A DNA stretch of 59,010 nucleotides from an uncultured Thermodesulfobacteriaceae bacterium. GTDB taxonomy: Bacteria; Desulfobacterota; Dissulfuribacteria; Dissulfuribacterales; UBA3076. Position 1 is the first letter of the stretch. Every line of letters begins with the position of its first letter. Below, piece after piece: positions 26,154 through 28,760 of the stretch. A model generated the notes under the pieces. It did not search any database, was not told where the DNA came from, and saw only the letters and a program-made list of their open reading frames with translations. Both the position numbers and the translations under genes were made by a program. The stretch is taken from positions 20,210 through 79,219 of the forward strand of contig CAZYEJ010000003.1 of assembly GCA_964646435.1 (NCBI GenBank), in the 5' to 3' direction.

Positions 26154-28574
26154 ATGGAAAACAACAATAAAATCAATGAGAAGGAACAAGAGTATGCTTC
26201 TAAACAGATAAAGGTACTTTCCGGGCTGGCAGCAGTTCGTAAAAGACCTGCTATGTATATAGGAAATACCTCAATAGAGGGTCTCCATCACCTCGTATAT
26301 GAAGTAGTGGATAATAGTATTGACGAGGCCATGGTTGGATATTGCACCTCTATTAAAGTCATAATTCAGGAAGATGGAAACGTTGTAGTTGAGGATAATG
26401 GTCGCGGCATACCTGTAGATATTCATCCAACAGAAGGAATACCCGGCCTGGAGCTTGTAATGACCCGTTTACACGCTGGTGGTAAATTTGATCATCAGAC
26501 CTACAAGGTCTCCGGAGGTCTTCACGGGGTAGGAGTATCAGTAGTCAATGGGCTTTCTGAATTTCTGGAGGCAGAAATTTACAGGGATGGAAAGGTTTAC
26601 AGGCAGACCTACAAAAGAGGAGAGCCTGTAGGTCCAATAGAGGTTCTTGGATCTACTAAAAAGCAAGGTACAAAAATAACATTCAAACCAGATCCTCAAA
26701 TATTTCAAGAGACAACAGAGTATCAGTACGAGATACTACAGGCCAGAATGAGGGAATTAGCTTTTCTAAATCCATCTGTGAAAATCTATCTTGAAGATGA
26801 GAAGACCGGGAATAATAAAGAATATCATTTTAGGGGTGGAATCCCTTCATTCGTAGAGTATCTCAACAAAAATAAAGAGCTGGTTCATGAAACACCTGTT
26901 TACATCAGTGGCGAGCGGGACCAGGTACAGTTGGAAATAGCCTTTCAATACAATCAGGCGTATTCAGAGAGAATCTTAAGCTATGTAAATAATATACGTA
27001 CCAAAGAGGGCGGTACGCATGTGGCGGGGTTTAGATTGGCCCTGACAAAATGTATTAATAAATACGCCAGCGATGATATTGTACCTAAGAAATTAAGGGA
27101 AAAGCTGGAGGGTGAAGATGTAAGAGAGGGCCTTGTGTGTGTTATATCAGTCAAGGTCCCAGATCCTCAGTTTGAAGGCCAGACCAAGACAAAACTGGGA
27201 AATAGTGAAGTAAGGTCAATAGTGTCTTCAATAACTCATGAAAAAATTTCAAGTTATTTGGAAGAGAATCCTTTGGTGGCCAAGAAAATCCTTACTAAGG
27301 CCGTAGATGCGGCAAGGGCAAGAGAGGCGGCCAAAAGAGCAAAAGAACTTACCAGGAAGAAGGGTGGCCAAGATATACTTATGGCCGGAAAATTAGCTGA
27401 ATGTCAGGAAAAAGATCCTGAAAGGAGAGAAATTTTTATTGTGGAGGGTGATTCCGCAGGAGGTAGTGCAAAACAGGGAAGAGACAGGCGTTTCCAGGCA
27501 ATACTGCCTCTTCGCGGAAAGATTATGAATGTGGAAAAGGCAAGATTTGACAAGATGCTTGCCAGCGAAGAGATACGCAATCTGGTTGCTTCTATTGGTA
27601 CGGGTATAGGCGCTGACGAGTTCGATCCATCAAAGGTAAGGTATCATAAGATCATTATTATGACAGATGCTGATGTAGACGGCGCCCACATAAGAACACT
27701 ACTGCTGACGTTTTTTTATCGTCAGATGATCACACTCGTGGAAGACGGCATGCTTTATGTAGCACAGCCACCTCTATACAGGATGGCTTTGGGAAAAAAG
27801 AAGGAATTTTTCTTTAAGGATGAGGCAGAACTCGACAACTATCTCTTTGAAAGGGCCACAAAAAACATGGCTATAAGGCCTGAAAACAGAGAACGTTCCA
27901 TTAAAGGAGAAAAACTCAAGACCTTTCTGGAAAACATCGTCTCCTATGAAGACGCACTGGAAATAATGTCCAGAAGGGGTTTGTGGAGGGAACTGAGTCA
28001 GGATTTAATGATCCTTGGGGTTAAGAATTCCGGTCAATTTCATGAAGAATCTTTTGTTAAAAGTCTGGCAAAAAAGCTCACGGAAAAGGGATATAAAGTG
28101 GGACGTGTCAAGCCCTCAGGTTCTGAGATTGCAGGCTATGAATTCATTGTGGGGATAGAAGACCTGGCCTATTTAACCGGTAAGGTCGGACCCGATTTGG
28201 CACAACAGGCGGAATTCCGTCGTCTTGTAAAGGCATATAATAAAGTAGAATTAATGGTTAATACATCTATTGAGGTCTATTCTGAAGATAAACCTGTCAA
28301 GAGATTGGACAGGCTTGATGAACTTCTGGATTTTTTCCGAAACGAAGGGAGAAGGGGTATCTCAACCCAGAGATATAAAGGATTGGGAGAAATGAATCCC
28401 ATTCAGTTGTGGGATACGACTATGAATCCGGAAAAACGGACTTTGCTTAAGGTGACCATCAGGGACGCAGATGAAGCAGAAAGCCTGTTTACTACTCTTA
28501 TGGGAGAAAAGATTGAACCACGCAGGGAGTTTATTCAGACCCATGCACTGGAGGTTCGGGAGTTGGATATATAA
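26154..28574 (+). CDS. gyrB: DNA gyrase subunit B
   Basis: [44 protein letters not shown]. Confidence 0.97.
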
Positions 28575-28580
28575 CTCATG

Positions 28581-28737
28581 GTAAGCGTTCACAGGGCACC
28601 GCATCTGCTTTGTTGTCGGGCACTTGAAGTACAGGAAGTACGTCTGCGTACCCTCCGCCTCGCATCTGCAGCACCCTGTAAACGCTTACAGTTCGGTAGG
28701 TTGTGGTAAAACGAGCGTTGTAACCCCGTGAACAGTT
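28581..28737 (+). mobile_element. MITE-like element, copy 2 (157 bp) with perfect 10-bp target-site duplication
   Basis: ataactcatg occurs at 28571-28580 and 28738-28747, directly abutting the element. Ends share GTTCAC(A/G)GGG in inverted orientation. Confidence 0.85.
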
Positions 28738-28760
28738 ATAACTCATGAGAGGATATTTGG

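Follow-up and report, generated by a model that had tools for sequence, protein, structure and literature searches.

The 59,010-nt stretch of an uncultured Thermodesulfobacteriaceae genome that we analyzed (contig CAZYEJ010000003.1; hereafter the window) contains a repeat of about 159 bp that is, with a probability of roughly 85%, a non-autonomous DNA transposon (MITE) derived from or mobilized by an insertion sequence (IS) of the IS66 family. The MITE in the window is genuine yet ordinary, and its biology is what one would expect of a bacterial MITE. A genome scan revealed at least 82 full-length copies in 13 species-level MAGs, and at least 108 family loci were found across 13 MAG assemblies; sequence-level HMM and BLAST searches sufficed to recover all copies. 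The hosts are all Deltaproteobacteria/Thermodesulfobacteriota, several of them labelled SEEP-SRB2, uncultured sulfate reducers. The modal length is 159 bp, and 68 insertion sites are independent, with unrelated flanks. The element has no coding capacity, as its sole stop-free frame is open in 40 of 75 copies and lacks a start context, and placement is largely intergenic, just 4 of 75 copies lying inside long ORFs. The copy at one locus (L101) is identical to the family consensus, which means that the family was active recently somewhere. The MITE had no blastn match in plasmid and phage collections, and viral contigs scanned with the terminal inverted repeat gave eight chance matches, no MITE and no IS66 gene.

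A preliminary description of this DNA had recognized three full copies, about 85–90% alike, and two half copies (39577-39648 and 47333-47393). Both observations were borne out: the full copies share 88–90% identity over about 159 nt, and the half copies were recovered with slightly wider limits. A 23-nt core pattern matches five times in the window, against zero matches expected. The features discussed below are as follows.

17091-17098, + strand: empty target, single AATATTTA; occupied in the related MAG B4_G9 (L026:6266-6424)
19383-19538, + strand: copy 1, full MITE, 9.4% from the family consensus
28573-28580, + strand: left target-site duplication (TSD) of copy 2, AACTCATG; 9 bp with T28572; overlaps the final bases of the gyrB stop codon
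28581-28739, + strand: copy 2 (focal), full MITE, 159 bp, nhmmer E=9e-58
28581-28608, + strand: IRL of copy 2, GTAAGCGTTCACAGGGCACCGCATCTGC, beginning with the IS66 hallmark GTAAGCG
28662-28689, + strand: IRi of copy 2, internal inverted copy of IRL, matching it at 22 of 28 positions
28725-28739, + strand: IRR of copy 2, reading ...CCCCGTGAACAGTTAT; family consensus CCCGTGAACGGTTAC
28740-28747, + strand: right TSD of copy 2, AACTCATG
37400-37407 and 37567-37574: TSD of copy 3, gaaatttt (+ strand), 9-bp type
37408-37566, − strand: copy 3, full MITE, 10.1% from the family consensus
39576-39650, + strand: copy truncated at its 5′ end, retaining positions 85-159 of the element, some 75 nt upstream of argS, no TSD
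47331-47393, − strand: mini form of 62 bp, spanning element positions 98-159 and beginning at the internal GTAAACG; TSD unrecognizable (1/8)

The window copies are old residents, 4–10% from the consensus and intergenic near gene 3′ ends.

The true termini of the element are GTAAGCGTTCACAGGG...CCCGTGAACGGTTAC, so that the right end extends 1–2 nt beyond its earlier placement (...GGTTAC). The terminal inverted repeats, GTAAGCGTTCACAGG and GTAACCGTTCACGGG, are conserved among 68 aligned copies; the first 15 positions of IRL and the reverse-complemented IRR consensus agree in 13. The flanking direct repeats reported earlier are physically present, but they are not 10-bp duplications: the duplicated target is 8 bp (~85%) or 9 bp (~15%) long, and AT-rich. 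An 8-bp TSD is perfect in 34 of 75 copies and matches at seven of eight positions in another 15, compared with 0.2% and 0.3%, respectively, of shuffled pairings, and the ninth position matches in just 17 of 75. Among the eight copies that end in a base other than C, seven match flank base −9, which points to 9-bp duplications in these copies. This 9-bp type is the one that has lost the terminal C, and copies 2 and 3 of the window belong to it. Copy 2 is flanked by an 11-nt direct repeat (tataactcatg) and copy 3 by a 10-nt one (aaaaaatttc); the earlier 10-mers are 8–9 bp of target plus 1–2 bases of the element, the residual base in copies 2 and 3 being the element's conserved A. The TSD of copy 1, TCTTTTTT/CCTTTTTT, matches at seven of eight positions.

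Related genomes also provide sites without the insertion. Eight comparisons were made, seven of them clean, and none contradicts the 8-mers as duplicated target. The empty sites, including those of the gyrB-adjacent and groEL-adjacent copies, carry the target singly. The site of copy 2 is empty in L193, L163, L134, L127 and L153, related contigs having a single AACTC(T)TG, and that of copy 1 is empty in L026, while the same insertion is present in UBA3076 (L003). Three more occupied/empty pairs are L006/L088, L078/L095 and L068/L063. The proposal that the repeat was transposed by a TSD-generating enzyme is thus strongly supported by the 82 full copies, the TSD statistics and the empty sites. 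The idea that the family instead spread by recombination or segmental duplication, the direct repeats being chance or microhomology, could appeal to partial copies lacking a TSD (39576-39650, 47331-47393 and several others). It would have to account for 68 independent sites with unrelated flanks, for repeats of at least 7/8 exactly abutting the ends in 49 of 75 copies against less than 1% in controls, and for the precision of the empty sites. We consider it extremely improbable overall, and for the full-length copies the TSD statistics together with the empty sites refute such an origin.

We next consider the family of the transposase. The inverted repeats of IS66-family elements begin with GTAAGCG and their target direct repeats are 8 bp (PMC11946415), and an ISBst12-group example has GTAA-type ends with 8-bp repeats (PMC12898284). 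The MITE has GTAAGCG at its left end in 58 of 68 aligned copies and GTAACCG at its right end, read on the other strand. It thus resembles IS66, IS679/ISEc8 and members of the ISBst12 group such as ISDge4 in its GTAAGCG (GTAA) repeats and in the 8-bp target repeat (PMC11946415, PMC12898284). Judged from ends and TSD only, the parent family, to which the preliminary description gave no name, would be IS66. Unlike these insertion sequences, the MITE carries no tnpA, tnpB or tnpC, and measures 159 bp rather than 1.3–3 kb. Its IRL matches the outer IRR over only about 15 nt, where 20–30 nt is typical of IS66, and the left end is repeated in inverted orientation inside the element, matching IRL at 22 of 28 positions.

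Consistent with the earlier remark that the window holds no cognate transposase, none of its 48 ORFs matches Pfam transposase families. Queries with the IS66 TnpA/B/C proteins of an Aminobacter plasmid gave no tblastn or phmmer match in the window, in 108 genome loci (740 kb) or in 107 metagenome loci (775 kb); the DNA searched, about 1.5 Mb, comes from fragmented MAGs, and since MAG assemblies break at repeats, the missing parent IS is weak evidence in either direction. A search for an autonomous element found no matching end pairs 1–3.5 kb apart in the loci, and IS66-type ends 60–6000 bp apart with a TSD delimited MITE-sized elements only. All-against-all clustering of ORFs within the loci revealed no multi-copy ORF. 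One candidate autonomous element of 1.7 kb (L041:516-2198) proved to be two unrelated ends flanking ordinary genes.

Might a different transposase have moved the MITE? An enzyme of another 8-bp-TSD type (IS256, ISL3, IS1595 or IS6), or an undescribed one, would make the GTAAGCG ends coincidental. An 8-bp TSD on its own is not unique to IS66, as the ISfinder family tables illustrate, and the roughly 1.5 Mb of sampled DNA yielded no IS66 transposase. To our knowledge, however, the ends of the other 8-bp-TSD families begin with GG or GA. Moreover, three or more other MITE families of these genomes also have GTAAGCG-type ends, with termini GTAA(G/C)CGTTCAC and TSDs of 8/8, and the published IS66 consensus starts with precisely the 7-mer, GTAAGCG, seen at the terminus (PMC11946415). 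Another transposase therefore seems very unlikely to us, and we retain IS66 as the probable source of mobility.

An IS66-derived origin would suggest the following scheme. An IS66-family DDE transposase (TnpC type), encoded elsewhere or since lost, would bind both ends in trans and cut the target with an 8-bp stagger, and gap repair would then produce the duplication. The element may be viewed as having three end-like sequences: IRL (positions 1-28), pointing inward from the left, and IRi (82-109) and IRR (145-159) in the opposite orientation. IRL and IRR would be the ends really used in transposition, whereas IRL and IRi would make up a 109-bp palindromic module that gives rise to the internal stem. 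The near-palindromic tip of IRi, GTAAACGCTTAC, doubles as the left end of the 62-bp mini form; paired with IRR, it would yield this derivative, itself apparently transposed, as the mini form has a TSD of 8/8 at L104 and 7/8 at L052. The solo 109-bp IRL-IRi form is not established, its lone candidate lying at a locus edge (L030).

Like the known bacterial MITEs (Correia/NEMIS, ERIC, RUP, BOX, MITEPsy1, QMITE1/2; PMC10969869), the element is small, non-coding and multi-copy, with terminal inverted repeats and a TSD. It also shares their location between genes, frequent co-transcription, size variants and truncated copies (PMC10969869). In contrast to our family, the target duplicated by Correia and RUP is TA and that of MITEPsy1 is 4 nt long (PMC10969869), and the ends differ too. 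The text of this MITE review does not mention IS66, and the literature that could be searched yielded no report of a MITE derived from IS66, its limited coverage meaning that this is not proof of novelty. The PATEs of IS200/IS605 and REP/BIME sequences are likewise short intergenic repeats able to form hairpins, but they lack target duplication and GTAA-type terminal repeats. PATEs and REPs are defined by a hairpin end that a Y1 transposase recognizes and by insertion without a target duplication, and the clear 8–9-bp TSD of the MITE does not fit this type.

The contexts noted previously, just after gyrB, groEL and ORF 37074 (DUF6955), were confirmed. Copy 2 separates the gyrB stop codon (28572-28574) from the RBS/ATG (28761) of a DUF6485 gene, and within this spacer it is probably co-transcribed with both genes. 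Copy 1 has inserted into the groEL terminator, within its T-tract, and copy 3 lies 13 nt past the stop of the DUF6955 gene. Across the family, the median distance to gene 3′ ends is 10 nt, and in nine cases the MITE itself provides the stop codon. The spurious ORFs with a common sequence, pointed out before, do arise from the element, whose open reverse frame gives PDNKADVVPCER in copy 1 and PDNKADAVPCER in the other two full copies.

In the internal stem, element positions 1-16 do pair with 94-109 (in copy 2, 28581-28596 with 28674-28689), and G/A at position 3 is paired to C/T at position 107, as had been described. The further claim that the stem is under selection was not established: three of 16 pairs show compensated changes, and the arms are conserved no better than the remainder. 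The left terminal repeat recurs in inverted orientation inside the element, which gives the stem, and the data only weakly suggest that selection keeps this stem. That, besides serving mobility, the IRL/IRi hairpin is a selected RNA or ssDNA structure, for example one that signals transcript processing or stability from within 3′ UTRs and the spacers between cistrons, appears unlikely, although several observations speak for it. Pair 3/107 is G-C in three copies and G.U in one, compared with A-U in 64; pair 5/105 has a U-A change in one copy; and at pair 10/100, a C.A mismatch in the consensus (56 copies), 12 copies re-pair through a change in one arm (7 U-A, 5 C-G), the five C-G copies being those counted as compensated. 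The observed covariation score was reached by none of 500 column shuffles. However, related sequences may outscore shuffles without any structure, the 3/107 change is probably a single inherited event within a subfamily, and three double-changed pairs were also reached by 16 of 500 shuffles. In addition, RNAalifold prefers another fold, with a covariation term of just −0.24, and about 8% of stem cells are broken. Divergence from the consensus is 3.8% in IRL, 2.9% in IRi and 4.3% in the centre, so the arms change about as fast as the rest. Quasi-palindrome template switching, or a single transposase binding both arms, would give the same matched changes with no selection on RNA.

The antisense strand folds at −70 kcal/mol, much better than shuffled sequence (z about −6), into a 23-bp helix with four G.U pairs, while the sense strand has a z of about −1; the wobble-type mismatches, all four on one strand, correspond to p ~0.125. 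Co-directional contexts favour the sense orientation by 26 to 13, a bias with p = 0.053. The clustering of copies near gene 3′ ends would agree with a role in transcripts, and metatranscriptome assemblies do contain family sequence, these being Logan contigs from related strains in which strand, ends and source copy are not resolvable. On the other side, the whole window has no Rfam match at gathering thresholds, and a scan of copy 2 showed neither promoter nor terminator motif. It is conceivable, if quite unlikely, that the family has been co-opted as a mobile 3′-UTR/intercistronic RNA module by which bacteria partnering with ANME tune housekeeping operons, gyrB-DUF6485 among them. This argument would draw on a three-ended architecture with a long hairpin that is strand-asymmetric and G.U-tolerant, on preferential retention within about 10 nt of stops, including the nine stop codons provided by the MITE, and on an orientation that places the weaker hairpin in the mRNA.

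The main use of these results lies in annotation and assembly. Spurious ORFs come from the MITE and from three or more sister families with the same ends. The MITE also interrupts the assembly of MAG and Logan contigs: a large share of the partial copies is found at contig ends, and the Logan contig with gyrB terminates at the element. Individual insertions may serve as presence/absence markers for SEEP-SRB2 lineages; copy 1, for instance, is common to UBA3076 and missing in B4_G9. The family also suggests that an IS66-type transposase is, or once was, active in these uncultured syntrophs.

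The preliminary description read the repeat as a MITE, and this reading is essentially correct: the element is real, non-coding and about 159 bp long, and what needs correcting is the length of its target-site duplication (TSD), its ends and the claim that its stem is selected. The three full and two partial copies described in the window were recovered by alignment, a repeat finder and a profile HMM of the family, and neither of the latter two found a further copy in the 59 kb.

Copies of the element in the window (full copies placed by site reading and alignment, partial copies by the repeat finder and the family profile HMM)
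19383-19538, + strand: full copy 1, after the groEL terminator
28581-28739, + strand: full copy 2 (the focal copy), in the spacer between gyrB and a DUF6485 gene
37408-37566, - strand: full copy 3, 13 nt past the stop of a DUF6955 gene
39576-39650, + strand: partial copy, a 5'-truncated full copy
47331-47393, - strand: partial copy, the 62-bp form, without a TSD

The full copies are 88-90% identical in pairwise comparison over a repeat length of ~159 nt. A 23-nt core pattern matches five times in the window against 0 expected by chance, and Rfam gave no match anywhere in it. All three full copies do lie next to gene ends (the groEL terminator, the gyrB stop and the DUF6955 stop); copy 2 begins 6 nt past the gyrB stop, and 21 nt separate its end from the DUF6485 start codon (ATG). 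As had been noted, the window holds no transposase: the 48 ORFs scanned with Pfam are instead housekeeping genes, including groES/groEL, a ComM-like gene, serS, dnaN, gyrB, a rimO/miaB-like gene, panC/panD, thiC, fumarase, map, argS, secA and argJ. The ORF said to be shared between copies is also real. This reverse frame, simply the only one in the element free of stops, gives PDNKADAVPCER from copies 2 and 3 but PDNKADVVPCER from copy 1.

Scanning GTDB species-representative genomes with the core pattern yielded at least 108 loci. All those listed come from 13 MAG assemblies labeled Deltaproteobacteria or Thermodesulfobacteriota, and BLAST over them found at least 82 full-length and at least 53 partial copies. 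Among the matches listed, E20SeepSRB2 and FWG174_SeepSRB2 are explicitly SEEP-SRB2, and other MAGs include UBA3076, AUK005, B4_G9 and Meg19_1012_Bin_147. The window's own genome is absent from these 13 assemblies; its closest relatives among the matches listed are B4_G9 and UBA3076, at ~91-92% DNA identity. Many of the partial copies in the genome loci lie at contig ends, and a Logan contig with the window's exact GyrB also terminates at the element, indicating that the repeat breaks assemblies. Indeed, MAG and Logan contigs often end in the MITE or hold runs of N inside it (L003, L061, L080, L034, L119 and many locus ends), so that it systematically breaks assemblies of these genomes.

When 78 copies were lined up with their flanks, the true ends proved to be GTAAGCGTTCACAGGG... 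(left) and ...CCCGTGAACGGTTAC (right), with a modal length of 159 bp and AT-rich insertion targets. In 34 of 75 copies the 8 nt on either side are identical, and in 15 more they agree at seven of eight positions; randomly re-paired flanks do so in 0.2% and 0.3% of cases, respectively. Agreement at the ninth position, in only 17 of 75 copies, is at the chance level. Among the 49 copies with a good TSD, 41 have the consensus final C and only 6 of these match the flank base at -9, compared with 7 of the 8 copies having another final base. This concentration of -9 matches in copies without the final C indicates that ~15% of insertions have a 9-bp duplication and lack the terminal C. Copies 2 and 3 are of this type (TAACTCATG and AAAAATTTC), so that in each 10-mer reported earlier nine bases are target and one is the conserved A of the element; the TSD of copy 1 matches at 7/8 (TCTTTTTT/CCTTTTTT). 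The duplication itself is thus supported both by flank statistics and by empty sites, but it is not 10 bp long: its length is 8 bp in the modal case, or 9 bp.

For empty sites, the two flanks of a copy were joined and used as a query against other loci. The site of copy 1 is empty in B4_G9 (L026), where the groEL terminator reads GGCCTTTTTTAG unbroken, and UBA3076 carries the same insertion as copy 1. Occupied and empty alleles were likewise found for L078 versus L095 (single GTTCTGAA) and L068 versus L063, and the window itself is the empty allele, with a single AATATTTA at 17091-17098, for a B4_G9 copy upstream of groES. A further precise pair is L006, which is occupied, and L088, which is empty with a single CAACACAG; the fifth candidate from the flank search, L088 versus L006, was not accepted as a clean empty site because a larger indel separates the two. 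For copy 2, a degenerate GyrB C-terminal pattern was used to scan metagenomes, and the element is absent from all five related contigs recovered (80-95% identity). In L193, L163, L134 and L127 the gyrB stop leads straight into the DUF6485 gene; in L153, the site holds a single AACTCTTG, followed 10 nt on by a different MITE of ~150 bp. Judged by the empty sites, the duplicated bases are target sequence except for one or two that belong to the element. The outcome that the preliminary description had named as refuting, 10-mers that are part of the element instead of duplicated target, was thus not observed.

An IS66 inverted repeat is given as GTAAGCGTCCGG... (PMC12888890), and ISDge4, a member of the ISBst12 group, has ends GTGACT/GTAACT and an 8-bp direct repeat (PMC12898284). 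On the strength of their sequence, the ends GTAAGCG...CGGTTAC probably place the element in the IS66 family. The same genomes contain at least three other short repeat families with GTAA(G/C)CGTTCAC termini. One, of ~145 bp, starts with GTAACCGTTCACACTCCCTGG / GTAACCGTTCACACTCCCTGGCAGCCGACAGG and has eight copies (L001, L014, L033, L053, L058, L063, L082 and L083); another, of 220-249 bp, has perfect 8/8 TSDs (L002:131-379 and L036:3854-4073). In the window, an IS66-like end, GTAGCCGTTCACGGCTTGAAA..., opens a repeat at 22777-22960 whose first base directly adjoins the serS stop codon, and the end recurs at 38696-38730, upstream of map; this repeat looks like what is left of a sister MITE family. 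Several non-autonomous families with one kind of end are what a single transposase acting in trans is expected to produce. The IS66 tnpA/tnpB/tnpC set of an Aminobacter plasmid, used as query in tblastn and phmmer, had no match in the window, in 740 kb of genome sequence (the 108 loci listed) or in 775 kb of metagenome sequence (107 loci), nor were IS66-type end pairs 1-3.5 kb apart found to enclose such a gene; given that multi-copy IS elements drop out of MAGs, this negative result is weak evidence.

Copies diverge from the consensus by 3.9% on average. The L101 copy equals the consensus exactly, and the highest values of all belong to window copies 1 and 3 (9.4% and 10.1%). Since, in addition, some insertions are common to species-level genomes and others are lineage-specific, the family must be old. 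It was active as this clade diversified, and the window copies are fossils. The element is one more example of a well-known kind, in an ecologically interesting uncultured group, and is of use chiefly for annotation, for assembly and as a strain marker.

Within the element, positions 1-16 (GTAAGCGTTCACAGGG) can pair with 94-109 (CCCTGTAAACGCTTAC) apart from one C.A mismatch, and imperfect complementarity reaches 28-nt arms (1-28 with 82-109, matching at 22 of 28). The stem thus arises because the left terminal repeat (IRL) occurs a second time, inverted (IRi). The left 109 bp look like a complete palindromic mini-element, with the last 50 bp supplying the right end actually used. The IRi tip, GTAAACGCTTAC, is nearly its own reverse complement and thus reads as a left end too. 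A 62-bp derivative (positions 98-159) occurs as solo copies, some of them with TSDs: 8/8 in L104, 7/8 in L052 and 6/8 in two more.

The preliminary description had held this stem to be under selection; the stem stands, as an additional left end in inverted orientation, but selection is unproven. In 68 aligned copies, 91.8% of stem cells are paired and both-sided changes affect three of the 16 pairs: 3/107 (three G-C and one G.U versus 64 A-U), 5/105 (one U-A) and 10/100 (C.A mismatch in 56 copies, U-A in 7, C-G in 5). The covariation score favors selection, in that no column shuffle out of 500 matched it. However, 16 of the 500 shuffles matched the three double-changed pairs, and the covariation tool itself warns that related sequences may beat shuffles without any structure. 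Moreover, the 3/107 change, found in window copies 1 and 3 and the truncated copy, in L078 and, as G.T, in L037, looks like one subfamily rather than recurrent events. RNAalifold picks another fold, in which covariation contributes only -0.24 kcal/mol, and divergence from the consensus is flat (IRL 3.8%, IRi 2.9%, center 4.3%, right terminal repeat 5.8%), meaning that in resident copies the stem decays no more slowly than the rest. Template switching could also produce matched changes between the arms of a quasi-palindrome, as could binding of the same protein by both arms. In the 23-bp helix, all four mismatches are C.A or A.C on the sense strand and hence G.U on the antisense strand (p ~0.125 for this one-sidedness taken alone); folding energies are -70 kcal/mol (z ~ -6) for the antisense RNA versus -49 to -57 kcal/mol (z ~ -1) for the sense RNA.

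The 75 copies represent 68 independent sites, and only four of the copies are inside long ORFs. The median distance is 10 nt to an adjacent gene 3' end versus 83 nt to an adjacent 5' end, and at nine sites the stop of the upstream ORF is the TAA within the element's GTAA. Between co-directional genes, the sense orientation outnumbers the other by 26 to 13 (p = 0.053). These patterns fit AT-rich target choice combined with purifying selection against insertions into genes and promoters, and a mild RNA-level effect of the copies would also be compatible with them. Copy 2 has no promoter-like or terminator-like motif. It is probably transcribed together with gyrB and the DUF6485 gene, as the empty allele leaves only 30-60 nt between them. 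Metatranscriptome assemblies (cold-seep, sediment) gave no coverage over the groEL terminator; they contain the family sequence at high k-mer depth, in collapsed multi-copy contigs without strand, which says only that some copies are transcribed.

Other repeats were seen nearby. A different MITE-like family of ~150 bp lies at 46495-46640 (ends ...AATTGAGCGATTAGCGGTTA / TAACCGCTCAA...), with 20 BLAST hits over loci; it also occurs at L153:3975-4125, where 10 nt separate it from the empty copy 2 site, and in L034, L024, L003, L075 and others. A palindromic repeat of ~100 bp (GGACCCGTAAAGGAATAA...TTATTCCTTTACGGGTCC; 32510-32610 and 47162-47244, the latter adjoining the 62-bp mini-MITE), with relatives in L088, L101 and L071, is a further short dispersed family. 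A 63-nt stretch is doubled at 39508-39570 and 46438-46500 (87% identical, end TATAAT/TGTAAT), upstream of argS and of a DJ-1/PfpI gene; each duplicate is followed by a different short repeat (39642-39671, 46539-46568) ending ...GATTAC just before AAGATA. This may be a promoter region that was duplicated and that carries nested repeat insertions. Direct repeats of 76 nt (51438-51513 and 53030-53105, 89% identical) enclose a region with a PIN-domain gene and a small ORF upstream of it, a toxin-antitoxin-like arrangement (51981-52699), and a DNA methylase fragment lies at 49994-50875. Finally, an ORF of >611 aa (1-1840, - strand) that runs off the window start has an N-terminal signal-like sequence and three tandem 357-nt (119-aa) repeats, 98% identical, with 1-55 repeated exactly (55 nt) at 1618-1672; it probably encodes a secreted or surface repeat protein.
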